64,000 nt of DNA from Dehalococcoidia bacterium (GTDB lineage Bacteria > Chloroflexota > Dehalococcoidia > Lucifugimonadales > UBA3495). The DNA is taken from NCBI GenBank assembly GCA_965262595.1, contig OZ253548.1:1371740-1435739 (forward strand), in the 5' to 3' direction. The position numbers and the translations under genes are program-made. Under the pieces are notes generated by a model. It was not told the origin of the DNA. It did not search any database and worked only from the letters and a program-made list of their open reading frames with translations. The first letter of the stretch is position 1, and every line of letters starts with the position of its first letter. Positions 560-43,201 of this stretch are shown here, in pieces.

Positions 560-686
560 ATCGCTCCCGCCTAAAAACTTGGTACACCCGGAATCGTCCC
601 CAATTAAACGGCGAAACGGCCCCCCCTTGCCGCCCCCGGAACAAATGCATTTGATACTGTCTGCCACGGCGCGGCAACCCGAAATA

Positions 687-1724
687 TTACGGCCTTAACA
701 GCAGTTTGCCGAAGAAATTGGCGTCCTCCATGACTTGATGGGCGGTGGCTGCTTCGGACAGTGGGAATATCTGGTGGATCGCCGGGTGAATAACTCCCCG
801 GTTCAGCATCTCCACAATCTGCCGCATATCCTCCTTGCTCCCCATAAAGGTCCCGTAAATCTCTATCTGACGGGTGAACAGCAGCCCCAGGTGCAACTCC
901 GCCCGCAGCCCGGTAGTGGCTCCGCAAATAGTATATCGGCCGCCGGGCCGCAGCGAATTGAAGGCTCCGGTGAAGAAGTCGGCGCCTACGTGGTCCACCA
1001 CCACATCCGCTCCGACGCCGCCGGTCAGCGCTTTCACCCGTTCGGTTACGTCCTCTTCCTTGTAGTTGATTACCTCGTCGGCGCCAAGTTCCCGGGCCTT
1101 GGCCGCCTTTTCCTCGGTGCTGGTGGTGGCGATAACGCGAGCCCCCACCACGTTCTTCGCTACCTGGATGGCGGCGGTGCCCACACCGGCGGAAGCCGAC
1201 AGCACCAGCACCGTCTCCCAGGGCTGCAACTGGGCGCGGCGCACCATCATATTCCACACCGGCAGGAAAGTGGTGGGGATGGCTGCGGCATCCTCATAAG
1301 AAACGGGACCAGCGATAATGTGGGCGTTTACCGCCGGGACGACTACAAACTCGGCATAGCTGCCATCGGTGGCGCTGCCCATAAACCGGGAATTGGGGCA
1401 AAGATCGTCCCGTCCCGACATACAAACCGGGCATTGGTTGCAACTAATGCGAGGGTTGACTACCACCCGGTCGCCGGTCTTGAGCCCGCTCACCGCATCA
1501 CCCACCTGCACCACGTCACCGGCGCAGTCGCCGCCCAAAATCAGCGGCGGCGGAAACTCGCGGCGCAGACCCCGGCCTCCGGCCCGGGTGTAGAGGTCAA
1601 GACGGTTCAGGGCCGTGGCCCGTACCCGCACCTTGACCTGTTCGGGCTGGATTTCCGGTTCGGGCAACTCCCCAAAGTGAAGAACCTCCGGCCCGCCGTG
1701 GGCCTCAATATAAACTGCCTGCAT
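687..1724 (-). CDS. Zn-dependent alcohol dehydrogenase / quinone oxidoreductase (MDR superfamily)
   Basis: 345 aa with a GroES-like N-terminus and a Rossmann motif (SASAGVGTAAIQ) typical of the MDR family. Confidence 0.8.
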   Translation of the reverse strand: MQAVYIEAHGGPEVLHFGELPEPEIQPEQVKVRVRATALNRLDLYTRAGGRGLRREFPPPLILGGDCAGDVVQVGDAVSGLKTGDRVVVNPRISCNQCPVCMSGRDDLCPNSRFMGSATDGSYAEFVVVPAVNAHIIAGPVSYEDAAAIPTTFLPVWNMMVRRAQLQPWETVLVLSASAGVGTAAIQVAKNVVGARVIATTSTEEKAAKARELGADEVINYKEEDVTERVKALTGGVGADVVVDHVGADFFTGAFNSLRPGGRYTICGATTGLRAELHLGLLFTRQIEIYGTFMGSKEDMRQIVEMLNRGVIHPAIHQIFPLSEAATAHQVMEDANFFGKLLLRP

Positions 1725-1815
1725 AAATCGTCGTCTCCTTAACTATCCGACGCCAACAATCCGGTTGAAATCCAAGTGGATGATCAGATGATCAAATGGT
1801 CCTTATTCTCGGAAA

Positions 1816-2031
1816 CTAATCAGGGCGCCGGCCCTCGTAGCAATCATTACAGAGAAACACGATGGCCAATGCTTCCTCGTGGCTGGAAATCCGGCCGCAA
1901 TGGGGAATATCGCCGTCCTGGCTCCAGGGCTGGTGAAACTTGCCGCCGCACATCTGGCAGGAGGTCTGGTGAATGCCGTCCAGGGCGTCGCTACAGATAA
2001 TGCACGATTCCTGGTCCAAATCTTCAACCAT
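1816..2031 (-). CDS. small Cys-rich hypothetical protein (possible Zn-binding)
   Basis: 71 aa with CxxC-type pairs (CIIC, CQMC, CNDC). AGGTGA lies upstream of the ATG. Confidence 0.4.
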   Translation of the reverse strand: MVEDLDQESCIICSDALDGIHQTSCQMCGGKFHQPWSQDGDIPHCGRISSHEEALAIVFLCNDCYEGRRPD

Positions 2032-2148
2032 TACGTCACCTAACTCGTTTGATATGAAACCGCCGGAATGTGATCAGCTTGGGAGGCCACCCTTTTGGGC
2101 GCTCACCCTTCCCAGAACCGGCACGGACGAAGCGCAGAAAACTCCCGG

Positions 2149-3543
2149 CTACCCGATATCAGCATTCAATTGCTTTTGAACCCACCGCCGTTCCTCAGCT
2201 TCAGTAGTTGCCATTCCGTCCAACCGGGCAGTACGCAGTTCAGCCAGCAAATTACCCACCGCCGGGCCGGCAGACACACCCATTGCCAACAAGTCACGGC
2301 CCCTCAGCGCCGGTGTGATTTGCCTATATTCAACCCAGTACCGGCGCAGACTTCGACTTACCGTCGGTAATTCGGTCAGCCCGGCAACCACGGATGTAGC
2401 CTCCGGAGCCATCCCATCCAGAATATGGCAAAGCCGGGACGGGGCCGGCTTGTCGAATGCTATTTCCGTCTCCAAATCCCGCAATTTGATAGTGTCTCGA
2501 ACCACCTGCGCCCAGGGTCTGGGCATATTGAGCCGTCGAATCAGCCCTTCACCATCCCCCGCAGACCGGGGATAAGCCAGGGCGGCCAGCCAGGTCAACG
2601 GTTCAATGGGCAGCAGTTCAATGAGCAGCAGTTCTATAGGCAGCGGTTCCCTTTCAAGTTCGGTTTCCGGACCAATTCCTGTGGCGTTTTCGACGCTGCC
2701 TTCAGCCTGCCACTCCCCGACTCCCGCAACTAAAGCCGACCAGCGGCTCAAGTATTCGGCGCCTCCTAGAGCGGGATGGATGGCGGTCAGGATACCCAAA
2801 TCCGACGCCCGCCTCAGAATATCTCCCGGCCGCTCCTCTTCCAGGATTCGCGCCAACTCGTGGCGCAGCCGGTCGCCGCTAACCGTATCGGTAGCTGCCT
2901 GGGCCACGGCGGTCTGCACCTGGGCCGCCGTGTCCTCTTCCAGTTGAAAAGCCAACCGCTGCTCATACCTAACCGCCCGCAGCAGCCGGGTGGGGTCATC
3001 AGTAAAACTTTTGGAGTGCAGGGTGCGGATAACGCCGCGTCTCAGGTCCTCCAGCCCGCAATGACGGTCCAGAATGACCGAACTATCCTCCGTCAATTGC
3101 CAGGCCAGCGCGTTGACCGAAAAATCCCGGCGGGCCAAGTCTTCATCAATGGAGCCGGGAAAAACCTGGGGCAGGCTTCCCGGCCGGGGATATACTTCCC
3201 GGCGGGCGGTGACCAGGTCAACCCGCGCCTCGTCCAGAATGACCGTAGCGGTGCCAAACCTGGGATGGGTAACGACCCGGCCACCCGATTGCTCGGCCAG
3301 CCAACCGGCCACTTCCGGGGCTTTTCCCACAACTACAAAATCCAGGTCTTTTAGCGGGGAGTTCAAGAGAAGGTCGCGGACCGGCCCCCCAACCAAATAG
3401 ACCCGGATGGATTGGGAAGAGACGAGGCGGCGCAGGGCGTTAAACAAGAAGCGGTTACTGCCATCGAGGCGATTTTCGATAGCTTCCGGGGAGAATTGGC
3501 TCAGTTGGAAATTATCCGTGGGTAGCCTCATTCTGCTAAACAT
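2149..3543 (-). CDS. cca: CCA-adding tRNA nucleotidyltransferase / poly(A) polymerase family
   Basis: The N-terminal motif is LVGGPVRDLLL...DLDFVV. It carries an internal 15-nt tandem-repeat insertion (see findings). Confidence 0.75.
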   Translation of the reverse strand: MFSRMRLPTDNFQLSQFSPEAIENRLDGSNRFLFNALRRLVSSQSIRVYLVGGPVRDLLLNSPLKDLDFVVVGKAPEVAGWLAEQSGGRVVTHPRFGTATVILDEARVDLVTARREVYPRPGSLPQVFPGSIDEDLARRDFSVNALAWQLTEDSSVILDRHCGLEDLRRGVIRTLHSKSFTDDPTRLLRAVRYEQRLAFQLEEDTAAQVQTAVAQAATDTVSGDRLRHELARILEEERPGDILRRASDLGILTAIHPALGGAEYLSRWSALVAGVGEWQAEGSVENATGIGPETELEREPLPIELLLIELLPIEPLTWLAALAYPRSAGDGEGLIRRLNMPRPWAQVVRDTIKLRDLETEIAFDKPAPSRLCHILDGMAPEATSVVAGLTELPTVSRSLRRYWVEYRQITPALRGRDLLAMGVSAGPAVGNLLAELRTARLDGMATTEAEERRWVQKQLNADIG

Positions 3544-3675
3544 TATAGCATACGGCTACGTGATTAACGGGGTGAGTCATGCCGGCGGAACGGGCAACGA
3601 TTACCGGGGGTAAGGCAATAATTCGGTTGCGTTGGGCTGCTTTGCGATTGTCCCGGGCCGATTGGGCAGGTAGTC

Positions 3676-3716
3676 TTGGAGAATAGGCGCAGATATGCTA
3701 ATATTTGAGTACTCAA
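3676..3716 (+). promoter_or_regulatory. sigma70-like promoter (TTGGAG-17 nt-TAATAT) followed by the perfect 12-bp palindrome TTGAGTACTCAA
   Basis: -35 at 3676-3681 and -10 at 3699-3704 with an exact 17-nt spacer. The palindrome is at 3705-3716, then AGGAGG at 3719-3724 and ATG at 3732. Confidence 0.45.
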
Positions 3717-3731
3717 GCAGGAGGTGCCGCT

Positions 3732-4364
3732 ATGGCCGAATCTGATTTCAGAACCTATTACGACTTCCGTTGACCCTTCGTATATAACGCTGCCATGTGG
3801 CTGGCGAAGGTACGAGCAACCACCGGACAGGAAATTGACGTTGACTGGCAGCCTTTCTCCCTGGAGCAGGTGAACAGCGACAAGGGCGAGGACTTCAAGT
3901 ATTGGGAACAGCCGGGCGCCCTCGACGGCTCCGACAATACCCTCCTGGCTCACCGGGCGGGACTAGCCGCGAAGCGTCAGGGCAAAGAGTCCTTCGAGGC
4001 ATTTTTCATTGCCCTGTTGAAGCTGCGCCACGAAGACCGAAAGAGCCTGACCGAACCGGCAGTCATCGACGAAGCGGTCAACAACTCCGGTATTGATATG
4101 GCTCGCTTCCGGGAAGACCTGGCTGATCCCGACCTGCTGCGGGAGATTGGGGAAAGCCACACCATCGCGGTGGAGGAGCACGGCGCATTCGGCGTACCTA
4201 CTTATGTGTTCCCCAACGGCGCAACTGCCTTTGTTAAGATGCACATTCCTCCCGATGAAGCGGCCGGCGAGATTTACGAGTCGCTGACCCGGGTAATTAC
4301 CGGCGCACAGCACGTAGGCGAGCTCAAGCGCCCGTCGCCCCCGTGGCCCCACGGCATCATCTAG
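3732..4364 (+). CDS. DsbA-like thioredoxin-fold protein with in-frame TGA (candidate Sec) at codon 14
   Basis: The track ORF 3795..4364 extends in frame to ATG 3732, which has AGGAGG 7 nt upstream. The N-terminus reads MAESDFRTYYDFR-[TGA 3771-3773]-PFVYNAAMW, so the TGA falls at the DsbA-family active-site Cys position. Confidence 0.6.
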
Positions 4365-4385
4365 GGGAGCGGGCCAGGATTTGCT

Positions 4386-5273
4386 TTGGCAATCTCAGAT
4401 CTGGAATCCACCCTCGGACTGCGTTTCAAGAACCAGGGCCTGTTGCAACAGGCCCTGGTTCACCGTTCGTATCTCAACGAACAAGGCGGCTCTACTGTAG
4501 ATTCCTACGAGCGTATGGAGTTTCTGGGTGACGCCGTCCTGGAATTAGTCATTTCCACCGAACTCTATCGGTGCTTGCCCCAAGTTGCCGAAGGGGAGTT
4601 GACCAAAGGCCGGTCTGCCCTGGTTTGCCGCCCCAGCCTGGCAAAAGTGGCGCGGAGGCTGTATCTGGGAGACTACCTGTCCCTGGGCAAAGGCGAGAAA
4701 AGCGCCGGAGGCCAGCAGCGGGAGTCTATCCTGGAAGAGGCTTTTGAGGCTGTGGTGGCGGCGGTGTACCTGGACCAGGGATTCGAGGCGGCCCGCCAGT
4801 TCATCTTGCGAGCGTTAGAGCCGGAACTGGCCGAGTATTGCCGATTGGGAATACCGCCGGAAAATCCCAAGTCGCAGCTTCAGGAAACGATCCAGGGCCA
4901 GGGACGTTCCACTCCCCACTATCGGGTAATTTCCATGGAGGGGCCCGCCCACCAGCCGGTATTCACCGTGGATGTTTTGGTGGATGACGAATTTCTGGGA
5001 CGGGGCTCCGGAACCAAGAAGACGGATGCCGAGCGCGCCGCCGCCCAGGAAGCTCTGGCCCGGTATGAAACCGACTCGGAAGTGACTCCGGAGTCTGCCG
5101 GGGTTGTCTCCCCAGTAACTCCGGCCAAAGTTAAGCCGACCGGCCCAAGCGCTTCCCAAAACGATTCGGCCCTTCCGCCCGCCCCGGAAATTGTTTTGGA
5201 CACTATAGCCCCAGGGGCCACAGAACCGGCTTCCGATTCCCAAGAACTTAAGGACAGTGTCAGCGCCGAATAA
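4386..5273 (+). CDS. rnc: ribonuclease III
   Basis: It has the signature ERMEFLGDAVLELV and a dsRBD, plus a Pro/Ser-rich C-terminal tail. Confidence 0.9.
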   Translation: MAISDLESTLGLRFKNQGLLQQALVHRSYLNEQGGSTVDSYERMEFLGDAVLELVISTELYRCLPQVAEGELTKGRSALVCRPSLAKVARRLYLGDYLSLGKGEKSAGGQQRESILEEAFEAVVAAVYLDQGFEAARQFILRALEPELAEYCRLGIPPENPKSQLQETIQGQGRSTPHYRVISMEGPAHQPVFTVDVLVDDEFLGRGSGTKKTDAERAAAQEALARYETDSEVTPESAGVVSPVTPAKVKPTGPSASQNDSALPPAPEIVLDTIAPGATEPASDSQELKDSVSAE

Positions 5274-6229
5274 TGCTCTCATTCTTCCAACGCAACCGCG
5301 AGGCCAACCAACAGCGCACTACCGAAGGAGTTAAACGCAGCCGCGAACGCTGGTTCGGGCGCATCCTCGGCATCCTCCGCTCCTCAAACCTGAATGACGA
5401 CGTTTGGGAGGAATTGGAGGAAATCCTGATTTCCGCCGACGTGGGCGTGGAAACATCGCTGCGCATCATCAAAGAGATGAAAGCCCAGGTGCTGGCGGAG
5501 CGCATTGATGACGCGGAACAGGCCTTTGCCCGGCTGAAACAGACGTTGACCCGAGACCTGGAGGCCGGAGATTCCCCGGAAACCTGGCTCGATTCGGCGG
5601 CTGAATCAACTCCCTACGTCATTCTGATGGTGGGAGTCAACGGCGTCGGCAAGACTACCAGCATCGCCAAGCTGGCCCACCACTTCACCAAGGAAGGCAA
5701 GCGGGTAATCCTGGGAGCGGCGGATACTTTTCGCGCCGCCGCCGAAGAACAGTTGGAAATCCTCGGCAATCGGGCGGGCGTAGAAGTGATTAGCCACCAA
5801 CCCGGCTCCGACCCCGGGGCGGTAGCCTACGACGCCTATCAGGCCAGTAAGGCGCGGGGCGCCGACGTATTGATTGTGGACACTGCGGGGCGTCTGCATA
5901 CCCGGTCCAACTTGATGGAAGAGCTGAAGAAGGTGCACCGGGTCATCAGCCGGCTGGATTCGGCGGCGCCCCACCAGGTTATCCTGACTCTGGACGCCAC
6001 CACCGGCCACAACGGTCTGGCCCAGGCCCAGGCCTTTAAGGAAGCGGTGGGCTGCACCGGCATATTTTTGGCTAAACTGGATGGCACGGCAAGAGGCGGC
6101 ATTGTTCTGGCCATCAAACAGGAACTGCAAGTCCCCATCCTCTTTATCGGAACCGGGGAATCCCTGGACGACATGGCGCCCTTTGACGCCGGGCAGTTTG
6201 TTGATTCCCTGCTTGCCCCCACAGCCTGA
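5273..6229 (+). CDS. ftsY: signal recognition particle receptor FtsY
   Basis: SRP-GTPase motifs [20 protein letters not shown] and KLDG are present. The start overlaps the rnc stop (TAATG). Confidence 0.9.
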
Positions 6230-6354
6230 GCGGTTCAAGCCGGCCTTTCGACTCCCCGCTAGTGCAACCCATGCCGCCAATTTCTCTTTTCTCTTCTTTC
6301 TGCTTCTTGCCTGGTTCTTGTCCCGCGCCTGCGGGCCGCTCCCCGAGATAGGTC

Positions 6355-8802
6355 GTGGTTGACCTGGTTGGCTGGCTGCTGGTTATAGAACTGATGGGCC
6401 TGGTGGCCTTCCCCTTAACCTTCGTCCTGTTTCGACGGCTGCCCGACCGGGGCTACACGGTGGCCAAGCCGTTGGCCTTGTTGCTGGCCGCCTACCTGCT
6501 CTGGCTGCTCGGTCTGACCCACCTGATTCCCAACGCTCCGGCGACCATCGTCGGCATCCTGATATTGGGCGCCGCGGTATCCGGCTGGCTATTCTATCGG
6601 AGCCGAAGGGAAATAGCGCAATTTGTAACCTCCCAATGGCGCATCCTGCTAACCGCCGAAGCAGTGTTCCTGGCCTTGTTCCTGGCCTGGGCTGGGCTGC
6701 TGTCCGAGTTTCCGGGTATCAACCACACCGAGCAGCCAATGGACTTTGCCTTTCTGAACGGCATCCTGCAGAGCCAATTCTTTCCTCCGGAAGACCCCTG
6801 GCTGGCCGGCCACCCCATCAGTTATTACTACTTCGGCCACTTTATGATGGCCCTGCCAATGCAGTTAGCCGGCATACCTTCCAATCTGGGCTACAATCTG
6901 GCCCTCTCGCTGGTCCCCGCCCTGGTTGGAATAGCGTCTTTTGGCCTGGCCTACAACCTGATACGCTTATCCGGGGGCAGCGGCAAGGCAGCAATTGGCT
7001 TTGGGTTGACCGCTCCGCTTTTGATAATGCTGATCGGCAATCTGGAAGGAGCAATGGAGTTCGTCCATTTGCGGGGTTGGGGCGGCGACGGCTTCTGGCA
7101 ATGGGTGGGCATCAAGGGACTGGAAGGCGGAGCAACCGGGGGTTCCGGCGTCTTCCCCGACGGCGGTTGGTGGTGGTGGCGGGCGACCCGGGTTATTGAC
7201 ACCCTGTCCGGCGGCCAAAGCCTGGACTACACCATTACCGAATTTCCATTTTTCAGCTTTATCCTGGGCGATTTGCACCCTCACATGATGAGCCTGCCCT
7301 TCCTGCTGCTGACTCTGTCGCTGGGACTGAACCTGTTTGTTTCGCCGGAACGGCCCGGGCTTGGTTGGCTGGTCCGGAATCCCTGGGCGGCAGGGGCCAT
7401 TGCCCTGTCCCTGGGAGCGCTGGCCTTTATCAACGCTTGGGACTTTCCGGTGTACGCCGCCCTATTCGGGGTGATGCTGCTGGTGAAATGGTACGGCTGC
7501 GAGTTGACCGGACCGGATAAATCCTTGACCTTGACCTCCAATTCCACCTTACTCCTAAACCGGGGAAAGGCCGCCCTGGGCAAAGCATTCCTCAATGTCG
7601 GACTGATGTTTACACCAATTCTGGCGGCGGCAATCTTATTATTTTTGCCCTTTTACCTGAGCCTGAGCAGCCAGGCAGCCGGTATTTTACCGACGCTGGC
7701 ATACCCAACCCGACCTTTTCTATTCTTTCTGGTAATGGGGCTGCCCTTCCTGCTGGGGCTGTCCTTCCTGCTTCGCCAACTGCCGGGACTGAAAAGGCCC
7801 GGCCCGGTGGACGGCGCAGCGATTCTGCTGGTCGGGATCGTTGTCCTGACTCCCCTGTTGCTGTGGGTGGCGCTGGCTCTTGCCTGGGGCAGCCTGACCA
7901 ACGGAATCGCTTCGACCTGGGGGCCGGTGGGCTGGCGAATTCTATTGACTCTGCCGGGATTGACCGTCACCGGCTTGGCCGGGTTCAGCGCGCTACAGCG
8001 AGCCGGAAGGGGCAATGACCCGGTCTTGGCTTTTCCCTTGCTGTTGCTGGCCACTGCCGCTTATCTGCTGGTGGGAGCGGAGCTGTTTTATCTGGCGGAC
8101 TTTTTTGGCAACCGGATGAATACCGTCTTCAAGGTCTATTACCAGGCTTGGTTGCTGCTGGGAATTGTGGGGAGTTTCGGGCTTTATTACTGGCATTCCC
8201 GCCGCCGCCATCCTGATTCCGGTCCCACTCGTACGTCGCGGTGGTCCTGGGGTCGGGTCGGCCACTGCGCCTGGGTAGGTGGCGCGGCCTTGCTGATCGC
8301 TGTGTCACTCTATTACCCGGTGGGGGCAGTCCTGGAACGTACCGGCTACTTCCAGCCGCGCCACACCCTGCGGGATAACACTCTGGACGGTCTGGCCTAC
8401 GTCCGGGAAAATGACCCGGCGGAGTACGCCGCTATCCTGTGGCTTCGGGACCGGGCGGCGCCCGCAAGGATAGTTGAGGCGGTGGGCGATGATTATTCAG
8501 ACTACAGCCGGGTATCCGCCGCTACCGGACGCCCCACGATACTGGGCTGGAAGGGGCACGAGCATCAATGGCGGGGAACCACCGCTCCCTTTGATGGACG
8601 CGAAGAGGACGTGGCCCGAATCTACGAAAGTGGTGACCCGGCAATGGTGCGGCAGTTACTGGAAAAGTATAATATCCGGTACGTGTACCTGGGTAGCCGC
8701 GAACGCGCCAAATACAATATAAACCGTTTGCCCGCATTGGACGGTTTACTGGAAATCGCTTTCGAGCAAGACGGCGTAATTATCTACGAGCTAGCCCACT
8801 AG
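6355..8802 (+). CDS. large polytopic membrane protein, Chlor_Arch_YYY (TIGR03662/DUF2298-like) family
   Basis: 815 aa and highly hydrophobic, with the diagnostic ISYYYFGH (YYYxG) motif. Confidence 0.8.
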   Translation: MVDLVGWLLVIELMGLVAFPLTFVLFRRLPDRGYTVAKPLALLLAAYLLWLLGLTHLIPNAPATIVGILILGAAVSGWLFYRSRREIAQFVTSQWRILLTAEAVFLALFLAWAGLLSEFPGINHTEQPMDFAFLNGILQSQFFPPEDPWLAGHPISYYYFGHFMMALPMQLAGIPSNLGYNLALSLVPALVGIASFGLAYNLIRLSGGSGKAAIGFGLTAPLLIMLIGNLEGAMEFVHLRGWGGDGFWQWVGIKGLEGGATGGSGVFPDGGWWWWRATRVIDTLSGGQSLDYTITEFPFFSFILGDLHPHMMSLPFLLLTLSLGLNLFVSPERPGLGWLVRNPWAAGAIALSLGALAFINAWDFPVYAALFGVMLLVKWYGCELTGPDKSLTLTSNSTLLLNRGKAALGKAFLNVGLMFTPILAAAILLFLPFYLSLSSQAAGILPTLAYPTRPFLFFLVMGLPFLLGLSFLLRQLPGLKRPGPVDGAAILLVGIVVLTPLLLWVALALAWGSLTNGIASTWGPVGWRILLTLPGLTVTGLAGFSALQRAGRGNDPVLAFPLLLLATAAYLLVGAELFYLADFFGNRMNTVFKVYYQAWLLLGIVGSFGLYYWHSRRRHPDSGPTRTSRWSWGRVGHCAWVGGAALLIAVSLYYPVGAVLERTGYFQPRHTLRDNTLDGLAYVRENDPAEYAAILWLRDRAAPARIVEAVGDDYSDYSRVSAATGRPTILGWKGHEHQWRGTTAPFDGREEDVARIYESGDPAMVRQLLEKYNIRYVYLGSRERAKYNINRLPALDGLLEIAFEQDGVIIYELAH

Positions 8803-32312: not shown

Positions 32313-32508
32313 CGTCCTTAACCTTGGGCCGACGTATAAGCGACATTTTCGTCCGCAGGGAAATCCCCGGCACCCGTGAGAAACTGCCGCGCGTTCAGGG
32401 ATGCCCTACCCGAGAAGCAGTGCGTAGAAAGTACATAGTAGGCATTTGCTATAATATATATTGTATAATGCCGTATAACTCCGGGGAAATCAACGTCCCA
32501 ATGTTGGC

Positions 32509-32532
32509 GGTTCCGTTTGATTTTAGGGTTTG
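32509..32532. repeat. left terminal inverted repeat GGTTCCGTTTGATTTTAGGGTTTG
   Basis: Its reverse complement is found at 35700-35723, differing only at the outermost base. Confidence 0.9.
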
Positions 32533-32576
32533 GCCTATAGTACCATACGGGCGCACACGCACGTAGGGGGGTGTCT

Positions 32577-33944
32577 ATGGCCGACCGCAACTTTGCCAAC
32601 CGGACGCTGTACCACGGCGACAACATGGACTTCCTGCGAGGAATGAACTCCGGTACAGTCAATCTTATCGCTACCGACCCGCCCTTCAACAAGTCCCGTG
32701 ATTTTCACGCTACCCCCGACAGCCTGGCTAAAGGGGCCAGATTTGTTGACCGCTGGAGTTGGGATAGAGATGTTCACGAAGAATGGGTGGACGCTATCAA
32801 GGATGATTGGCCCGGTGTCTGGCAGGCCATAGAGAATGGCCGGGTTAATCATAGTCCAGGCATGGCTGCTTTTCTCTGTTGGTTAGGGATTCGTTTAATC
32901 GAAATGCGTCGTGTTTTGGCCGATGATGGGAGTATCTATCTGCATATCGACCATACTGCCCACGCCTACGCCAAAGCCTTGATGGACGCTATCTTTGGGC
33001 AACGCAACTTTAGAAATGAGCTTGTTTGGTGCTATAAATCAGGGGGTGCGAGTCCTTCACGATACTTTAGTCGGAAGCACGACACAATTTTGTGGTACAC
33101 CATAGGAAGGCAGTATTGTTTTAATCCCCAGCAAGAAAAGTCCTATAATCGAGATTTCAAGCCTTACCATTTTGCTGGTGTCAAGGAATATAAAGACAAT
33201 AAAGGCTGGTACACACTCGTTGGGATGAAGGACTATTGGGAAATTGACATGGTTGGGCGGACGAGTGGAGAACGTACCGGCTTCCCTACGCAAAAACCAT
33301 TGGCCCTCTATGAGCGCATCATCCACGCCAGTAGCAACCCCGGCGATGTAGTCCTTGACCCATTCTGCGGGTGTGCCACCACGCCCATTGCGGCTGAACG
33401 CTTGGGCCGTCAATGGGTAGGTATGGATATTTGGGACGGGGCGGTTGACGCTGTGCGAGCAAGAATAGCCGACAACCGCCAGCTATTGACCGAATCCAAT
33501 CCAACGATTACCTACGCCACCACCCCGCTGGAGCGCACCGATAATCCCGACCCCCACACTCCAACCGTACCTGATTTACAGTTGCGGATACGTCGGATAA
33601 AGGAACGCTGGGAGAGGCTTTCCCACGCCGAGATGCGGGATATACTCGCCACCGCTCAAGCAAGCGGGGATAGCGTAGTTTGCGCCGGTTGCGGTATCGC
33701 CCTTCCCGTCCGTTATATGCAACTAGACCACCGGGACCCACGAAAGGACGGCGGGGAGAACCTAATCACCAACCGGATTCTGCTGTGCGCTCCCTGCAAC
33801 AACTTAAAGCGGGCTGAACTGACACTTTCTGGATTAGTACGGGATAACAAGCGGGCCGGGTATATGGACAATGAGGCTATGGCAGACCTGGCCCAGACCA
33901 AAGCGAGGGACGCCGCCAACCGATGTAGGGCTGAAATGAGATAA
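32577..33944 (+). CDS. N4/N6 DNA methyltransferase (beta-class, DPPF) fused to a C-terminal HNH nuclease domain
   Basis: Motif IV is LIATDPPFNKSRDF and motif I is VLDPFCGCATTPIAAERLG. The C-terminus reads CAGCG...LDHRDPRKDGGENLITNRILLCAPCNNLKRAE. The start is ATG 32577 or GTG 32571. Confidence 0.8.
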   Translation: MADRNFANRTLYHGDNMDFLRGMNSGTVNLIATDPPFNKSRDFHATPDSLAKGARFVDRWSWDRDVHEEWVDAIKDDWPGVWQAIENGRVNHSPGMAAFLCWLGIRLIEMRRVLADDGSIYLHIDHTAHAYAKALMDAIFGQRNFRNELVWCYKSGGASPSRYFSRKHDTILWYTIGRQYCFNPQQEKSYNRDFKPYHFAGVKEYKDNKGWYTLVGMKDYWEIDMVGRTSGERTGFPTQKPLALYERIIHASSNPGDVVLDPFCGCATTPIAAERLGRQWVGMDIWDGAVDAVRARIADNRQLLTESNPTITYATTPLERTDNPDPHTPTVPDLQLRIRRIKERWERLSHAEMRDILATAQASGDSVVCAGCGIALPVRYMQLDHRDPRKDGGENLITNRILLCAPCNNLKRAELTLSGLVRDNKRAGYMDNEAMADLAQTKARDAANRCRAEMR

Positions 33945-33956
33945 GGAGAGTCAAGT

Positions 33957-34091
33957 ATGGCAACGAACCGGAACAAAAGGGAACCGGAAAAGCCGGTGGA
34001 GACACCAAAGCCGCCACGTACCTGCACCTGCGGCATTGAAATTGAGAAAGCTAAAAGGTTGTGTGCCGAGGCCGACTGCCCCTATCGGTAG
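33957..34091 (+). CDS. 44-aa Cys-containing small ORF (below the ORF-track cutoff)
   Basis: AAGGAGAG lies 6 nt before the ATG. The product is MATNRNKREPEKPVETPKPPRTCTCGIEIEKAKRLCAEADCPYR, with four Cys. Confidence 0.3.
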   Translation: MATNRNKREPEKPVETPKPPRTCTCGIEIEKAKRLCAEADCPYR

Positions 34092-34117
34092 TCTGCCCCT
34101 GCAATGGGAGGAAGATT

Positions 34118-35164
34118 ATGGCCGAATACACCGATACCATTACCACCAAGATACTCTGCCCCGATTGCGACTCCCCCGACGTGGTGAAGCACGGCTTCCA
34201 GAACGGCCAGCAACGCTATCGCTGTAAGCCCTGTGGCAACCGCTTTCGTTACAACGGCAAACCACAGGGCCGGCAACTCCAAAGCGAACATACCGGGGCG
34301 GCGGTCAGAATGTTCTACATGGGTATGTCCTATAAGCAGATTGCCGAAACTATGGAGAAACAGCACGACATCCCCGAACCTTCCAAGCACACCGTCTATG
34401 CCTGGGTCAAGCGATACACCGATGAGGCCGTTACCGAAAGCCGCAATCCCCAATACCGGGCGCATACCGGCGATGTTTGGGTTGCTGACGAAATGCAGGT
34501 CGTGGTCGGCGGCGAGAAGTATTGGCATTGGAACGTGATGGATGAGGATACCCGCTACGTCCTCGCCTCTTATCTGACCAAAGAACGGACTACCAGGGCG
34601 GGTACGGAGGTAATGCGCCGGGCCAAGTTAGCCGCCGCCAATGAACCGAAGGAAATCAAGACGGATAGGCTGAGTTCCTATGACGGGGCCATAGACCGCG
34701 TATTCCCCCTGGCCAAGCACGTCAAAGCGGACGGGATACAGGCGGAAGTCAACAACAATATGTCGAAACGGCTACAGGGTAGCTACCGCTCCCGTACCAA
34801 GACCCTGCGGGGATTGGACAGCCGGGAGACGGGGCAAAGGTATCTGGACGGCTGGACGCTGACCTACAACAATTTCCGAGACCACGAGGGCGCGGACGGG
34901 GAACCGCCGGCGGTCAAGGCCGGAGTGAAACTGCCCTATGACGAATGGGCGGACGTGGTACGGGGCAATGACGGCTCGCCGGACCAAATGCACGAATACC
35001 GGAAGGTTGCCGCTCTGGAACGGCCCACCTACCGGATTGTGCCGCCGTCAGGAATGGGGGAACCGGCTTTCCGGCGGCGGGCTACACCGAGAAAGCCGAG
35101 GGGGATGGGCGGGTCTAGCGGCACTCGCAAAATCGTGGTGACGGGCAAGGCAAGTGTCGGCTGA
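34118..35164 (+). CDS. DDE transposase, IS6-like, with N-terminal Zn-finger
   Basis: GGGAGGAAG precedes ATG 34118. The Zn finger is CPDCDSPDVVKHG...YRCKPCGNRF. The DDE-type core reads WVADEMQVVVGGEKYWHWNVMDEDTRYVL...IKTDRLSSYDGAI. Confidence 0.8.
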   Translation: MAEYTDTITTKILCPDCDSPDVVKHGFQNGQQRYRCKPCGNRFRYNGKPQGRQLQSEHTGAAVRMFYMGMSYKQIAETMEKQHDIPEPSKHTVYAWVKRYTDEAVTESRNPQYRAHTGDVWVADEMQVVVGGEKYWHWNVMDEDTRYVLASYLTKERTTRAGTEVMRRAKLAAANEPKEIKTDRLSSYDGAIDRVFPLAKHVKADGIQAEVNNNMSKRLQGSYRSRTKTLRGLDSRETGQRYLDGWTLTYNNFRDHEGADGEPPAVKAGVKLPYDEWADVVRGNDGSPDQMHEYRKVAALERPTYRIVPPSGMGEPAFRRRATPRKPRGMGGSSGTRKIVVTGKASVG

Positions 35165-35181
35165 TAGCAAAGGGGTGATAA

Positions 35182-35553
35182 ATGCCTGGGATAGAAATGC
35201 CGGTCAGAATGACTACGGCGATGTTGTTCTTCTTTGCCGGAGGGGTAGCCGCCTATTTCTCATTGGAGAATCCTGCCCTGTGGTGGGTTGCTGAATGTAG
35301 CTTTGCCTTCTTTGTTGCATTGGGGCCTGTCCATTGGTTAATACAAGGACTTCTGTACATACCGTTGTCACGAGTAGAGGAACGCTGCATTGGGGACACG
35401 TTAGCCGGAGATTGCTTGCAGGGGTTAGCGTGGGGGCTTCAGGTTCTGTTGATGGGGTATGTGCTCTGTCGCAGGGGTATTCGCATCTGTCGAGGCTGGC
35501 TTCCGGCGATTCTCCTTTATGACATTGATTATAAATATGGAAAAGCCTATTAA
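35182..35553 (+). CDS. hypothetical membrane protein (transposon passenger)
   Basis: 123 aa with 3-4 hydrophobic spans. AAAGGGGTGA lies upstream of the ATG. Confidence 0.45.
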   Translation: MPGIEMPVRMTTAMLFFFAGGVAAYFSLENPALWWVAECSFAFFVALGPVHWLIQGLLYIPLSRVEERCIGDTLAGDCLQGLAWGLQVLLMGYVLCRRGIRICRGWLPAILLYDIDYKYGKAY

Positions 35554-35699
35554 CCCACTACCACCAATGACGGCGAACATACCGATTAGAAACCACTGCT
35601 GTAAAGTGTAGTCAAACAAAACAACTCTCCAAAAGCTCAATATATCTATGATGCCCCCAAATCCCTACCCGCGCGGGCGCACGTCAGCCCCGTAGGGGT

Positions 35700-35723
35700 C
35701 AAACCCTAAAATCAAACGGAACT
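35700..35723. repeat. right terminal inverted repeat (reverse complement AGTTCCGTTTGATTTTAGGGTTTG)
   Basis: It pairs with 32509-32532. ATGTTGGC follows directly at 35724-35731. Confidence 0.9.
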
Positions 35724-35881
35724 ATGTTGGCTATCCGCTATTCGCCATCATCTCGTCGCCGATCCAAATTGACAGAGGGCGGGCCGGTAGGTAGGATAAC
35801 GGAAAATGCTCTAAACCTTGTGGAGTTTTGATCCGGGTATCCTGTTTTCCCTACAGTTTCCGCATTGTATAAGGAGGATCT

Positions 35882-37915: not shown

Positions 37916-37975
37916 GGATGGACAGGATATACAGAATACGTGATAAAAAGCTTATCCTGTATATCCTGTCCATCC
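37916..37975. terminator. long perfect hairpin between convergent genes (bidirectional terminator candidate)
   Basis: The 19-bp arms GGATGGACAGGATATACAG (37916-37934) and CTGTATATCCTGTCCATCC (37957-37975) pair perfectly, with an inner GATAA/TTATC pairing. Confidence 0.55.
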
Positions 37976-37992: not shown

Positions 37993-38661
37993 CTAAATCG
38001 CCGCCCTTATTTCCTCAACCAAGGAATTGATGCGGTTGGCTTGAGCTATATTGAATATGCCGGTAATCTCATCGCTCCGATAGCCCACCAAGTCGGTAGG
38101 CACCGCGTTGGATACGATGTAAAAGGGAGATGTCTTGTTTTGGCGTCGGAACTTTAGGGCGTTGGCTTGGGCTTTCTTCCAGGTGTCCGAGCGTTCCAGC
38201 CCGGGCCTATAAATGGTGGTCACTGTATCGTCCGGGTTCTGCACGTAACGGGGCGACCCTTTGGTTTCAATGGCAACTCGGGGCGTAACCTCCAGATCAT
38301 GAGTGTTGGTATTGCCCGGGGTGGCTACAGCCGGCAGTTCAAACCTGGTGGACAAGAGATACCGCACTGCGCTTTCAAAGACCTTTCCAACTATTGACGA
38401 CCGGGCTTGAAAAGTAGCTACCTCAAACACCCTGCCGGAATCGCATAAAGGGCATTTCAAAGGCATATTGCCAAATGCCGCGGTAGTAGTTCCACCACCA
38501 ATACAAGCCACGCAGGCCCAAGCCGGATAGCAGGCAACTGCGTCAATAGCCTGTTGAAAGCAGCCATTGAAGTAATTTTGCAGCCGCCCGTTGGTTAATT
38601 GCCGGTTACTGATAGGCGGATAATTAGCCCGGACGATTTCATCATACGGAATAGCCGGCAC
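37993..38661 (-). CDS. type II restriction endonuclease candidate (Cys-cluster N-terminus + PD-(D/E)xK core)
   Basis: The core reads HDLEV...VAIETKG (D...ExK). Cys clusters are CYPAWACVAC...CPLC. It overlaps the 3' end of the adjacent methylase by 20 nt. Confidence 0.55.
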   Translation of the reverse strand: MPAIPYDEIVRANYPPISNRQLTNGRLQNYFNGCFQQAIDAVACYPAWACVACIGGGTTTAAFGNMPLKCPLCDSGRVFEVATFQARSSIVGKVFESAVRYLLSTRFELPAVATPGNTNTHDLEVTPRVAIETKGSPRYVQNPDDTVTTIYRPGLERSDTWKKAQANALKFRRQNKTSPFYIVSNAVPTDLVGYRSDEITGIFNIAQANRINSLVEEIRAAI

Positions 38662-39628
38662 TGCTCACCTCCGCGATAATCCGACCATCGGGATTGACCT
38701 GGACAAAGAGTTGGGGCGATGCCGCCAAACGGCGGTAGGCCAGGGCCTGGTATTCCGGGGAAATCTCATAGCCCACAAACCGGCGGCCGGTGTTCAGCGC
38801 GGCCAGAGCCGTGGTGCCGCTGCCCATAAAGGGGTCCAGCACCACCTCGTCCGAGTAGGTGTAAAGCTCGATGCAGCGGCGGGGGAGCTCCTCGGGAAAG
38901 GGGGCGGGATGCCCGATGCGCCGGGCCGATGTTGCGGGGAATTGCCAGATGCTACGGGTACACGCCAGGAAATCGTCCCGGCTGATGGTGGCTTGGCGGT
39001 TGGGGAGTTTGGGCCGCCGCCAGGTGTCCTTGCAGAGAACGAGGATGTATTCGTGGACATCCCGCAGCGTGGGGTTGGTGGGGGACTTCCAACTGCCCCA
39101 GGCGGTGGAGGATGCGGCGCTGGCCGCCTTGTCCCAGATGATTTCCCCCCGCATCAAGAAGCCCAGTTCTTGCAAGTCCTCAATGATGTAGCGGTGCAGG
39201 GGCAGGTAGGGACGGCGGCCCAGGTTAGCGATGTTGAAGCAGATCCGACCGCCCGGCACCAAGACCCGGTGGACCTCCCCCATCACGGTGCGGAGGAAGT
39301 CCCGGTACTCGGCCAGGGTCAGGTCTTCGTCGTATTCCTTCCCCACGTTATAGGGCGGAGAGGTCACCATCAGGTGGACGCTGCAATCGGGCAGGGCGTC
39401 CATCTTCTCTGCCGAAACGGGCAGGATGGTATTGGCGACACCGTAGGGTAGGGGATTTTCTACATACGCAACCCGGCGTTCCGCCGGCTGGTCAGCGTAA
39501 AGCCGGCCGGCGTAGAAGCGCGAGGAGTCATGCCCATGCCGCCCCGCCGCCCCAAAGGCGGAAGTTTGGGTTTTCCACCCCAAATTGTCGGGGGGGGGGG
39601 GGGGTAGATTGTTATTATCGGAATTCAA
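38642..39628 (-). CDS. N4-cytosine/N6-adenine DNA methyltransferase (beta-class, SPPY)
   Basis: Motif IV is LMVTSPPYNVGKEY and motif I is VLDPFMGSGTTALAA. It has a TTG start, and the N-terminus contains PPPPP encoded by the G15/C15 tract. Confidence 0.85.
   Translation of the reverse strand: MNSDNNNLPPPPPDNLGWKTQTSAFGAAGRHGHDSSRFYAGRLYADQPAERRVAYVENPLPYGVANTILPVSAEKMDALPDCSVHLMVTSPPYNVGKEYDEDLTLAEYRDFLRTVMGEVHRVLVPGGRICFNIANLGRRPYLPLHRYIIEDLQELGFLMRGEIIWDKAASAASSTAWGSWKSPTNPTLRDVHEYILVLCKDTWRRPKLPNRQATISRDDFLACTRSIWQFPATSARRIGHPAPFPEELPRRCIELYTYSDEVVLDPFMGSGTTALAALNTGRRFVGYEISPEYQALAYRRLAASPQLFVQVNPDGRIIAEVSSAGYSV
39590..39604. repeat. homopolymer G15 (C15 on the coding strand) inside the methylase 5' end
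   Basis: Counted directly in the sequence. It encodes Pro x5 at codons 9-13. Confidence 0.9.
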
Positions 39629-41186: not shown

Positions 41187-41271
41187 GGTCTCACTCCTCT
41201 CTTTCGCATTGACGCCAATCTCTGGATCGGGGGTATTAGTACGAAACCCTTGTAATGCTGAGTAATCGAAA

Positions 41272-41321: not shown

Positions 41322-42275
41322 TTATCGGTTGACTTGACTGACATGAGGGCTGTCCACTGCCGTGACATAACGGGCTTCATCTTCCAAGAGCATCAATTGT
41401 TCCATTTCCCCAGTCGGTTCTTTGGCAAAGTTGCCGGGTTTGTAATTAGTAACGATTGCTTCCAGCATGGCTTTTCTGTTTCTCTCGTAGGCGCCAACGT
41501 GATAAAAGTGCTCTTGGGTCAAAATAGAAAATTCGCTCCAAAGCTCCTGGATGAACCGGTTCTCCCGGTGCTGGTTACTATGCCATGTGGACAACATGAA
41601 CCTTGCACGGGTGTTCTTCAAGCTAGTATGCAGCAGATTTTCCTTGTGCGCATCCCAAGTTTGATAATAGTCAACATGTCGGTCAACGTAGGGTGGGTCG
41701 CAATACACGAAGTCGCGGTCTGTAGCGTCCTGAATTGTTTTCTGGAAGTCCTGGCAGACAAAGCTCCAGTCGAGCACCTGTGTGGCTGCTCTAAAGCGCT
41801 CCACCTGATTGACTATTTTCGTAATGTAAGCCGGTGCGAATCGCTTCGGTTTGTGCCCATACGGAACATTGAAGTGTCCTTTACTGTTGAACCGGACGAG
41901 TCCGTTAAAGCAAGATCGGTTAAGGAAGAGGAAATCCAGTGGGTAGCCAAATGAATTGAAACGGTCCCTGACACGGTAGTAGTGGGCCTTTCCTTCATTT
42001 GCAAGCAAGACCCCTTCACGTTCGAGAAAAATCCTTGTTTTCTTCCCGTCTATTTCCCCGTCCTTGATGGCCTGATAAAACCGAATCATGTGGGGGTTGG
42101 TATCTGCCAGTATGGCGTTTTGGGGTAGAACATTTAGAACAACTACCCCGGAACCCAGGAACGGTTCGATCCATGTTCCTTCAGTATCCCGGTCGAGGCA
42201 CCGCAATATAGTCGGGACCAGCTTGGTCTTGATGCCCTGGCACTTTAGCGGAGGTACTAGTATTCGCAAATTCAT
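41322..42275 (-). CDS. Dam-family (D12 class, alpha) N6-adenine DNA methyltransferase, M.EcoRV-like
   Basis: Motif I is EPFLGSGVVVLN and motif IV is VYCDPPYVDRHVDY. It overlaps the upstream nuclease gene by 4 nt. Confidence 0.85.
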   Translation of the reverse strand: MNLRILVPPLKCQGIKTKLVPTILRCLDRDTEGTWIEPFLGSGVVVLNVLPQNAILADTNPHMIRFYQAIKDGEIDGKKTRIFLEREGVLLANEGKAHYYRVRDRFNSFGYPLDFLFLNRSCFNGLVRFNSKGHFNVPYGHKPKRFAPAYITKIVNQVERFRAATQVLDWSFVCQDFQKTIQDATDRDFVYCDPPYVDRHVDYYQTWDAHKENLLHTSLKNTRARFMLSTWHSNQHRENRFIQELWSEFSILTQEHFYHVGAYERNRKAMLEAIVTNYKPGNFAKEPTGEMEQLMLLEDEARYVTAVDSPHVSQVNR

Positions 42276-43201
42276 CCCCCGCCACGACGTCGCCGGGACT
42301 TGGGGACAACTTTCGTCTCGTCCCCGCCACGGTATTTAACGAAATCAATCATATTACGGATTGTACGTGTCTCACCCGAATTTTCTCTTATAGTAATGCT
42401 ATCATAATTCATCCAATAGTCATCAAACCAATTTTCTCCGAGTAGAGAGAACATACCCTTTCCCAAAACTATGTCATCAATCTTGGTGACGCTACCAATA
42501 TTTGCTGTGTTGCCACTGCCTCTCCTGTCACTGGCGATTTTCCATTTTTCCTGTACAAAGAACTGAAAATTCCGAATTACTGAAACAATGGACTTAAGGT
42601 CATCCAATTGATTTGTCGTCGCTTCGTTTACCGACTCGTCAACGCTACGTGAATATATTATTCCTAAACAAAAGTGACTCAAATAGTCTTTATAAGGGAA
42701 CTGAATATTCTTGGTACTGTTGCGATTCTTGAAGTACTCGCCGTGTGACCCGAGGGTAAAGCCATTGCAAAAGTCCGGAGTGCCTTCGACTCGATAGGTC
42801 GTCTTGAAGTCAACGGCAAACTTTACCTCTGGATTTGTCATCTTTACAAAAGAGAGGTCCGGGTAATAGTTTTGGTGTTCAGGGAGAACCAATCCAAAGC
42901 CTGTCTGCTCGGCAAATAGCATGAGCTTCGGGAAAAGGTGTATTTCAAGTATCTTGGACACGACTTTAGTGTCGGATGAGATAGCATATATGTTGCGATA
43001 AATGTCTATAAAACCCTTGATCGCCCACTGTCCGTCTTCTGTCTGTACCACGTCACCAAGGTCAGCGACGAAGCTTGTCAGAGCATCTTGGAATGACCTT
43101 TTCTCTTCTTCCTTATCCAATCTAATCTCCAGTTCGTAGCAAGTAGTCGCGAAAACACCCCAAAGATCAATTGCACTCGCACGAACGGACCAGAAAACCA
43201 C
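42272..43201 (-). CDS. type II restriction endonuclease, EcoRV-like
   Basis: Blocks match EcoRV as I remember it: SSDTKVVSKILE, HQNYYPDLSF...KFAVDFKTTY (the PD...D-x-K core), FTLGSHGEYF, QEKWKIASDRRGSGNTANIGS and FDDYWMNY. Confidence 0.75.
   Translation of the reverse strand: MVFWSVRASAIDLWGVFATTCYELEIRLDKEEEKRSFQDALTSFVADLGDVVQTEDGQWAIKGFIDIYRNIYAISSDTKVVSKILEIHLFPKLMLFAEQTGFGLVLPEHQNYYPDLSFVKMTNPEVKFAVDFKTTYRVEGTPDFCNGFTLGSHGEYFKNRNSTKNIQFPYKDYLSHFCLGIIYSRSVDESVNEATTNQLDDLKSIVSVIRNFQFFVQEKWKIASDRRGSGNTANIGSVTKIDDIVLGKGMFSLLGENWFDDYWMNYDSITIRENSGETRTIRNMIDFVKYRGGDETKVVPKSRRRRGGG

Follow-up and report, generated by a model that had tools for sequence, protein, structure and literature searches.

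A 64-kb stretch of DNA from a Dehalococcoidia (Chloroflexota) bacterium, referred to below as the window, contains a mobile element in the spacer between two divergent housekeeping genes, otsA and an alpha/beta-hydrolase gene. The element spans window positions 32509-35723 (3,215 bp) and carries four co-directional genes, each with its own Shine-Dalgarno-like sequence. These encode a DNA methyltransferase fused to an HNH nuclease (methylase-HNH), a 44-aa product (orf44), a transposase and a 123-aa product (orf123). We interpret the element as a transporter insertion sequence (IS) of the IS6 family, zinc-finger subgroup, and assign a probability of about 0.85 to this explanation as a whole, including the proposed movement, the role of the cargo and the immobile state of this copy. 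The features of the locus are as follows, in window coordinates.

32501..32508, no strand: left copy of the target-site duplication, ATGTTGGC; present once at the empty site of L099
32509..32532, + strand: left inverted repeat (IRL), GGTTCCGTTTGATTTTAGGGTTTG; G at positions 1, 2 and 7 as in the IS6/IS26 family; its GGTTCCGTTTG core is common to 34 related elements
32533..32576, + strand: leader between IRL and the first gene; site of a 61-bp partial duplication in haplotype L001/L093
32577..33944, + strand: passenger 1, 455-aa fusion of a beta-class N6/N4 DNA methyltransferase (aa 28-292; DPPF, DPFCGCATT) and an HNH nuclease (aa 369-412; CxxC...DH...N...CxxCN)
33957..34091, + strand: passenger 2, 44-aa open reading frame (ORF) with four cysteines (CxC...C....C), preceded by AAGGAG
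34118..35164, + strand: transposase, 348 aa, with an N-terminal Cys4 zinc ribbon (aa 11-44), a helix-turn-helix region and a DDE domain (D124, D183, position 217)
35182..35553, + strand: passenger 3, 123-aa hydrophobic ORF, intact in 10 of 10 haplotypes
35700..35723, − strand: right inverted repeat (IRR); its outermost + strand base is T, so that the end reads AG... and not GG...
35724..35731, no strand: right copy of the target-site duplication, ATGTTGGC, flush with IRR
35769..35797, + strand: promoter-like TTGACA-N17-TAGGAT, flanking and outside the element, upstream of the hydrolase gene (start 35882)

Ends of the element and its empty site

The window has exactly two occurrences of GTTCCGTTTGATTTTAGGGTTTG, one at 32510-32532 (+ strand) and the other at 35700-35722 (− strand). 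In a shuffled window the chance expectation is 0 matches at up to 3 mismatches, and a search of all 64 kb revealed no further copies of the element ends. The complete 24-bp terminal inverted repeats (TIRs) agree at 23 of 24 positions, the mismatch being the outermost base (G at 32509 versus T at 35723, which is A in the inverted-repeat sense), and a repeat finder gives longer arms, of 26 nt at 96% identity. The octamer ATGTTGGC abuts both ends exactly. Since it is found six times in the window, what counts is its place flush with both ends.

In order to locate an empty site, we used the OtsA protein of the window as a query. An exact look-up returned nine contigs, eight of them from one metagenome sample; the insertion is at the identical place in all nine, and none of them has an empty site. 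Empty sites came only from the representative of the 99%-identical OtsA cluster (L099, a contig from a different sample) and from orthologues with 85-86% identity. In L099 the hydrolase and otsA genes are adjacent, with ATGTTGGC present once between them, and alignment of this spacer with the window flanks shows that exactly the 3,215-bp element and one octamer are absent. The element is also absent at the orthologous loci L097 and L098, whose OtsA proteins are 86% and 85% identical to that of the window. These results show that the element inserted once into the otsA/hydrolase spacer and duplicated the octamer. An ancestral segment that was deleted in L099 is very unlikely because the deletion would have removed one octamer copy exactly.

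The original prediction, made from the window sequence alone, had described 24-bp TIRs differing only at the outermost base, an 8-bp target-site duplication outside both ends and four + strand genes between them, and had proposed a search for relatives with the octamer once between otsA and the hydrolase gene. The repeats are as described. The duplication is confirmed by its position, by L099 and by the 34 related copies discussed below, while ORF and Pfam analysis supports the four genes.

The transposase belongs with the IS6 family

The transposase matches Pfam PF13610 (DDE_Tnp_IS240) at 58.3 bits, against a cut-off of 27, and its best NCBIfam match is transpos_IS6. It also matches PF03811 (InsA-type zinc ribbon) and the NCBIfam models of the IS1/IS1595 zinc-binding domain, and the cysteines C14-x2-C17...C36-x2-C39 are invariant in 22 sequences. 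Using hhalign, a profile of 22 homologues was aligned with the IS26 transposase, Tnp26, at 97.4% probability over 183 columns. By tblastn, the 234-aa Tnp26 query is 100% identical to annotated IS26 transposases in thousands of plasmids. The alignment pairs WVADEM, IKTDRL and NNNxSE of the profile with WHMDET, INTDKA and NNVIE of IS26, at positions that we take to be the D, D and E of Tnp26. In the window protein these positions are D124, D183 and position 217. The spacing from D183 to position 217 is 34, equal to the DD(34)E spacing given for IS26 in the literature.

Position 217 is Lys in the window copy (codon AAA, 34766-34768), where the motif reads NNNMSKR. Glu stands at this position in all 21 aligned relatives, in the sister contig L001 (GAA) and in every other member of its 90% cluster, so that among the relatives seen E217K is confined to the window copy; the lineage has an intact catalytic triad and the window copy does not. 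The original prediction had recognized a zinc-finger DDE transposase with an IS6-like core, doubted the third catalytic residue because NNNMSKR stands where NNxxE is expected, and asked for an alignment to IS26. The profile matches and the alignment agree with the first statement, and the Lys at the catalytic Glu position justifies the doubt. Its broader claim, a mobile IS6-family element with a methylase-HNH passenger in the otsA/hydrolase spacer, is upheld by the empty site, PF13610, the NCBIfam IS6 match and the IS26 alignment together.

Other characters of the family were compared as well. In the ends of IS6/IS26 elements G1, G2 and G7 are conserved (PMC6807381). In the window the IRL begins GGTTCCG and the IRR AGTTCCG; the relatives and 4 of the 10 haplotypes have GGTTCCG at the IRR. 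The 8-bp target duplication characteristic of the family is also exact at the 33 related loci. The lineage reads SERLQGxYRxR, with no His, and lacks the E-DH---K / E-SH--K signature of the short IS6 members; according to Harmer & Hall, E-DH---K is likewise absent from the long clostridial members. Typical elements of the family are small and free of passengers (0.7-0.9 kb, or 1.2-1.7 kb in the long subgroup), and the window element, at 3,215 bp with three passenger ORFs, departs from this pattern. The length of the transposase, 348 aa, agrees with the long zinc-finger subgroup, whose members have 340-350 aa including an N-terminal CxxC extension of ~90 aa. This subgroup is clade h of Varani et al. 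2021 and clade VII of Harmer & Hall 2019, and has been described so far from Clostridia. A PDB sequence search gave no meaningful solved structure for the transposase.

By analogy with IS26, the transposase would bind the GG-ended inverted repeats, cut the 3′ ends and join them to staggered target positions 8 bp apart. Replication would then yield a cointegrate to be resolved by homologous recombination of the host, and all DNA between the ends, cargo included, would be copied.

Related elements carry cargo within their ends

One genome per species was scanned for related loci. All 78 loci recovered are in metagenome-assembled genomes of Dehalococcoidia/Chloroflexota, the SAR202 group included. 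A copy was considered bounded when GGTTCCGTTTG-type ends lay on either side of the transposase gene, the inverted repeats were identical at 18 or more of 24 positions and an exact 8-bp direct repeat lay outside them. There are 34 bounded copies (the window and L002 included), ranging from 1,366 to 9,841 bp. Of these, 31 are 2.2-9.8 kb long and carry cargo, and only three are simple elements of ~1.4 kb. Transposases of other families (IS66, DDE_5) are nested in a few of the longest. The original prediction had called three passenger genes unusual for this family. This holds for the curated IS6 set, in which only ISDsp3 has been reported to carry a passenger gene (PMC7986276), but not for the Dehalococcoidia clade, where cargo is the rule. 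Beyond the remark on ISDsp3, we found in the literature searched no account of IS6-type elements that, as a lineage, regularly have cargo between their ends, nor one of this methylase-HNH fusion as IS cargo.

The 113 passenger ORFs are rich in DNA-modifying and DNA-cutting enzymes. Pfam families among them are HNH (13), N6_N4_Mtase (11), Endonuclease VII (Endonuclease_7; 4), N6_Mtase/Eco57I/MmeI (3), HSDR_N_2 (2), Mrr (2) and GIY-YIG (1); the remainder are DUF805 membrane proteins and many ORFs of no recognized family. Two elements, L030 and L050, encode nuclease-methylase fusions of Type IIG architecture (819 and 828 aa; HSDR_N_2 with N6_Mtase/Eco57I). Homologues of the window methylase(-HNH) are present in ten other bounded elements, in eight of which the gene lies directly upstream of the transposase gene and in the same direction.

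Several copies bear on the mobility of the unit. L020, L021 and L022 contain 100% identical, methylase-bearing copies of 3,364 bp at three sites, two of them in one genome. L096, from another sample, has the window's four-gene order next to a different left flank, with a transposase 93% identical in amino acids and 92% in nucleotides. In L055 (transposase 65%) a methylase-HNH gene, an orf44-like ORF, the transposase gene and an orf123-like ORF lie within 3,300 bp, with GCCGGACT as an 8-bp duplication of its own. The ends are also the same in L002 (transposase 83%), where the duplication is GGCTAAAT and the passengers are quite different. The whole four-gene unit is thus missing at the empty site, the same unit is found elsewhere and identical copies occupy three sites, as in a transporter IS.

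The copy of the 3,364-bp element at L020 3645-7009 is flanked by unrelated 8-mers, CTCTGACC and ATCGGAAG, as would be left by recombination between copies or by an unresolved or inverted intramolecular event; this fits IS6-type replicative behaviour. The L003 locus (100-7400), with an 82%-identical transposase (P0003), is crowded with fragments of IS1595 transposases, one of DUF4096 and many short ORFs. The pair of GGTTCC-type ends there agrees at only 15 of 24 positions and has no duplication; the locus is probably a scrambled IS graveyard.

The transposase gene decays while the cargo stays intact

We aligned ten allelic haplotypes, the window and L087-L095. None of the ten interrupts the reading frame of the methylase-HNH gene, of orf44 or of orf123. 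The transposase gene, in contrast, has the premature stops Q220* (four copies), W96* (two) and K338* (one). A 15-bp in-frame deletion is present in three copies, one copy has a +1 frameshift and one a −1 frameshift, and the window has E217K. L089 alone has a transposase of wild-type appearance. Seven distinct lesions thus fall in the 1,047 bp of the transposase and none in 1,875 bp of cargo, a distribution expected by length alone with a chance of ~0.36^7, or ~8e-4. There are 112 variable columns per kb in the transposase region versus 14 in the methylase gene. The variation in the transposase is blocky and mostly synonymous, and in the most diverged stretch several haplotypes are nearer to the L096 transposase (93%) than to the allelic L089 (86%). 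Given these blocks, we read the gene as decaying and being overwritten by recombination with other IS copies. An origin of the hypervariability in assembly or polishing errors was considered and rejected, and the variation treated as real, because the lesions are mostly in-frame substitutions, the synonymous blocks match a real element and the methylase gene is free of lesions in the same contigs.

The outermost bases of the element vary too. The right terminal base is T in six and C in four of the ten haplotypes, and with C the repeat of L001 is a perfect 24/24; the left terminal G is A in L091 only. These two bases (window 32509 and 35723) are the only polymorphic positions within the 24-bp repeats, and selection for immobility, error-prone repair after abortive nicking and chance are all possible causes. 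In IS26, changing the terminal GG to TT abolished cointegrate formation (PMC6807381). The window copy is probably immobile, because Glu217 is replaced by Lys and the terminal G of the right end by A. One haplotype (L001, the same haplotype as L093) has a 61-bp insertion just inside the left end (window 32545; L001 2620-2680) that partly repeats the leader GGGCGCACACGCACGTAGGGGGGTG.

The passengers

On the 455-aa fusion Pfam recognizes PF01555 (N6_N4_Mtase, 2.7e-44) and PF01844 (HNH, 5.7e-8). PADLOC assigns it to MTase_II (1e-52), and its orphan-methylase models also match. Profile matches in the PDB connect aa 114-298 with M.MboIIA, M.RsrI and CcrM, and aa 342-447 with the HNH domains of Cas9, IscB and McrA. 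The catalytic motifs of a methyltransferase and of a nuclease are therefore present in one polypeptide. The 23 homologues, which reach down to 58% identity, all keep DPPF, DPFCGCATT and the HNH residues (CxxC, DH, N, CxxCN) unchanged. The central part between the methylase motifs is hypervariable, in keeping with a target-recognition region. The protein is most likely, on the evidence of these motifs and of its distribution (below), an exchangeable, self-contained module of the single-chain restriction-modification type, a functional parallel to the Type IIG fusions of the sister elements. Such an enzyme would protect its recognition sites by methylation and cut those left unmethylated; its benefit to the element would be defence and/or addiction, and not assistance in transposition.

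The two small ORFs are less conspicuous. orf44 is called as a gene in all nine sister contigs and is intact in the ten haplotypes with one variable site; the C-terminal half of its product is conserved in L039, L055 and L096 (tblastn, 1e-8 to 9e-6). orf123 is called by no gene caller in the sister contigs, and its ratio of nonsynonymous to synonymous changes is not low. The N-terminal 65-106 aa of its product are conserved downstream of the transposase in L096 (59%, 4e-32), L055 (57%) and L051, and we consider it probably coding. A minus-strand ORF of 71 aa (35425-35640) was considered as an alternative to orf123 and rejected for lack of conservation.

Alternative explanations

The repeats and the octamer might be coincidental or ancestral, and the four genes resident chromosomal genes beside an old transposase. 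The presence of the arrangement in all nine contigs with identical OtsA makes it look fixed in that population. This explanation is refuted by the empty site, since the 99%-OtsA relative lacks exactly the segment between the repeats and one octamer. The more distant orthologues lack the element too, the same type of element has a different flank in L096, and identical ends with the same duplication length recur at 33 other loci in unrelated sites. We give it practically no chance. The two other alternatives accept the insertion and concern its principal passenger. The methylase-HNH protein could be a part of the transposition machinery, with the HNH domain cutting the second strand at the ends as TnsA does in Tn7, so that copy-in would become cut-and-paste, or with methylated ends gating the transposase as Dam methylation does in IS10. 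The gene indeed adjoins the transposase gene, upstream and co-directional, in the window, L012, L013, L015, L017, L021, L026, L055 and L063, and likewise in L096; small nucleases (13 HNH, 4 Endonuclease VII, 1 GIY-YIG) recur in the cargo; and the four-gene layout is kept down to 65% transposase identity. Against this, nuclease-free relatives of 1.4 kb show clean 8-bp duplications, with identical copies known from two sites (L011/L028), and 20 of the 34 bounded elements have no DNA methylase of either type (23 have none of the N6_N4 type). Methylase and transposase do not diverge together: in IS6 elements their pairwise identities show no correlation (Spearman 0.03), elements that bear a methylase are dispersed through the transposase tree, and L096 and the window share 93% identity in the transposase but only ~50% in the methylase. 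The fusion is also common away from IS6 transposases. Its family is large and extends beyond IS6 elements; of four look-ups, three gave solitary genes between housekeeping genes and one a gene abutting an IS1595 transposase. In JGI-metagenome and IMG/VR data, 73 of 92 loci encode the fusion, with an IS6 transposase within 4 kb in none and an adjoining IS1595 transposase in four. Finally, it is just where the transposase has died that the population conserves the methylase-HNH gene. Because methylase and transposase do not co-diverge and the fusion so often occurs without an IS6 transposase, we read the protein as an exchangeable module and not as a transposition factor, a role that we judge very improbable. 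If it did have that role, the HNH domain would cut the non-transferred strand or resolve a branched intermediate and methylation would mark ends or targets; the result would be a two-enzyme class of transposon derived from IS6 that makes simple insertions, in contrast to the obligate cointegrates of IS26.

Alternatively, the protein may be an orphan methylase that serves epigenetic regulation or repair in the host, with the HNH domain as a DNA-binding or nicking module and the insertion kept through host dependence. The intact gene in ten of ten haplotypes beside a decaying transposase would agree with this, as would the excess of synonymous over nonsynonymous changes in most comparisons, the solitary single copies between housekeeping genes in several complete genomes and the matches to the orphan-methylase models of PADLOC. 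On the other hand, the catalytic and zinc-binding residues of the HNH domain are invariant across the 23 homologues, which argues for an active nuclease; the hypervariable region resembles that of specificity-switching restriction-modification enzymes; and sister elements bear nuclease-methylase fusions of Type IIG architecture and nucleases of the Mrr and Endonuclease VII types. We consider host regulation a possible but rather unlikely role for the protein.

Several points weigh against our own interpretation, that of a cargo-carrying IS6-family element with a restriction-modification-type passenger. The score of the best NCBIfam match, 117.6 bits, falls short of its cut-off of 125. The transposase is only ~25% identical to that of IS26, from which cointegrate formation is extrapolated; the long zinc-finger subgroup is without any experimental study (PMC6807381), and Harmer & Hall doubt that the long transposases belong to the family. 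For the passenger, the S-adenosylmethionine-loop motif reads GCA instead of the usual GxG, though invariant in the family. A PDB search found no full-length solved relative or characterized enzyme of this architecture, and no biochemical characterization of such a fusion was found in the literature. The position of its gene directly upstream of the transposase gene in nine bounded elements may reflect a functional link. The ten haplotypes, finally, come from metagenome assemblies.

Two further observations concern the distribution of the methylase-HNH family. Its genes lie directly beside IS1595-family transposase genes in five loci, L086 (4075-6296), L107, L109, L160 and L182, with an overlap of 4 nt between the two genes in L086. 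The arrangement suggests that the module is a recurrent cargo of a second IS family, IS1595. We also considered whether the solitary genes in L082-L085 might be non-autonomous IS6 derivatives, and rejected this because they have no flanking GGTTCCGTTTG-type ends.

Neighbouring genes and strain-variable sites

The original prediction had held that the insertion probably separated the hydrolase gene from its promoter, on account of a TATAAT block (32450-32469) on the far side of the element. The analysis gives this no support. The TATAAT block is absent from L097 and L098, and TTGACA-N17-TAGGAT, the only sigma-70-like match near the hydrolase gene, lies between the insertion point and the start codon. 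All three empty-site orthologues (L097, L098 and L099) retain it, in a spacer that has otherwise diverged. The insertion seems to lie between two divergent promoter regions with the likely hydrolase promoter still attached, because this conserved match sits between insertion and gene. The window copy is an ordinary, probably dead insertion without evident effect on its neighbours. A scan of the left end and leader detected no sigma-70-like promoter. L096 and L002 also have the TATAGT of 32536-32541, but as it lacks a −35 sequence at a suitable distance we claim no promoter there. A search with Rfam (E ≤ 1) found no structured RNAs in or around the element.

Approximately 2 kb to the right of the element, at 37993-39628 on the − strand, is a Type II restriction-modification-like pair, consisting of a ~313-aa N6_N4 methylase (PADLOC MTase_II, 1e-122) and a 222-aa ORF without a family match. 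At sister and orthologous loci (L088 1-307, L097 1424-2861 and L098 1074-2433) a ThaI-family restriction enzyme (PF15514) replaces the 222-aa ORF and the length of the methylase differs, so that the locus looks like a restriction-modification swap site. Between the 222-aa ORF and a convergent NMT1-like gene is a 60-bp hairpin (37916-37975) with 19-bp arms, GGATGGACAGGATATACAG and CTGTATATCCTGTCCATCC. L001 matches it at 100% only in reverse orientation, and its loop has therefore flipped between strains. The synteny of the window with L001 stops at 41206. L001 continues (11328 onward) with a GmrSD-type Type IV restriction gene (PF03235/PF07510) and the window with two other minus-strand ORFs, 41322-42275 and 42272-43201; this is a second strain-variable spot of the defence type.

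Comparison with known systems

With IS26 and the other short IS6 elements (IS257, IS6100, IS240) the window element shares a PF13610 transposase with alignable catalytic positions and DD(34)E spacing, GG ends with G at position 7 and the 8-bp target duplication. Its transposase differs from that of IS26 in the additional N-terminal Cys4 zinc ribbon, in a long basic C-terminal tail and in reading E-RLQGxxR where IS26 has E-DH---K. In addition, IS26-type elements are 0.8 kb long and carry cargo only between two IS copies, whereas the window element, of 3.2 kb, has three passengers inside its ends. The elements of ISfinder clade h, or clade VII (ISCpe7, ISCbo1, ISTps1 and ISNth1), are similar in their zinc-finger transposases of 340-350 aa, 8-bp duplications and TIRs of ~20-30 bp. 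By their descriptions they are set apart as clostridial elements of 1.2-1.35 kb with no passengers, while the window lineage appeared in our searches only in Dehalococcoidia/Chloroflexota and usually with cargo. ISDsp3, from Dehalococcoides sp. BAV1, may be a relative; it is of the same bacterial class and of the IS6 family, and also has an 8-bp duplication, long TIRs (28/36) and a passenger gene. It is described as 1,456 bp long, with a 319-aa transposase reported to have no intact zinc finger and one hypothetical passenger.

Restriction-modification genes are known from transposon-like units. Furuta, Abe & Kobayashi 2010 (PMC2853133) described such units in Xanthomonas oryzae and Neisseria gonorrhoeae, with restriction-modification-type genes between imperfect TIRs, an 8-bp duplication and an empty site in a sister genome. 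Those units are single cases with no identifiable transposase; the window unit is of an autonomous type, with a recognizable transposase of the IS6 type, and is one member of a large lineage in which the cargo is exchangeable. Type IIG/IIC enzymes (Eco57I and MmeI types), which the cargo of L030 and L050 represents, also combine nuclease and methyltransferase in one polypeptide. The window protein has the opposite domain order, a beta-class N6_N4 instead of a gamma-class methyltransferase, and HNH instead of PD-(D/E)XK. IS6 zinc-finger transposases and restriction-modification genes in transposon-like units were thus known; what appears new, by the literature searched, is the cargo-carrying IS6-type lineage.

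We believe that the main value of these results is in the lineage and the population pattern, rather than in the window copy itself. A transposase knocked out in at least six ways and patched by recombination, next to an intact methylase-nuclease gene, is an unusually clean natural experiment; the pattern is that expected of a gene that outlives its vehicle because it is retained by the host or through the cargo itself. Knowledge of the IS6 family comes almost wholly from elements of 0.8 kb, IS26 among them, that move genes only in the form of pseudo-compound transposons. The lineage extends this repertoire to zinc-finger transposases that routinely carry genes inside their own ends, mostly DNA methylases fused to or paired with nucleases, and suggests one way in which restriction-modification-type genes may be disseminated through an abundant, largely uncultured group of environmental bacteria.

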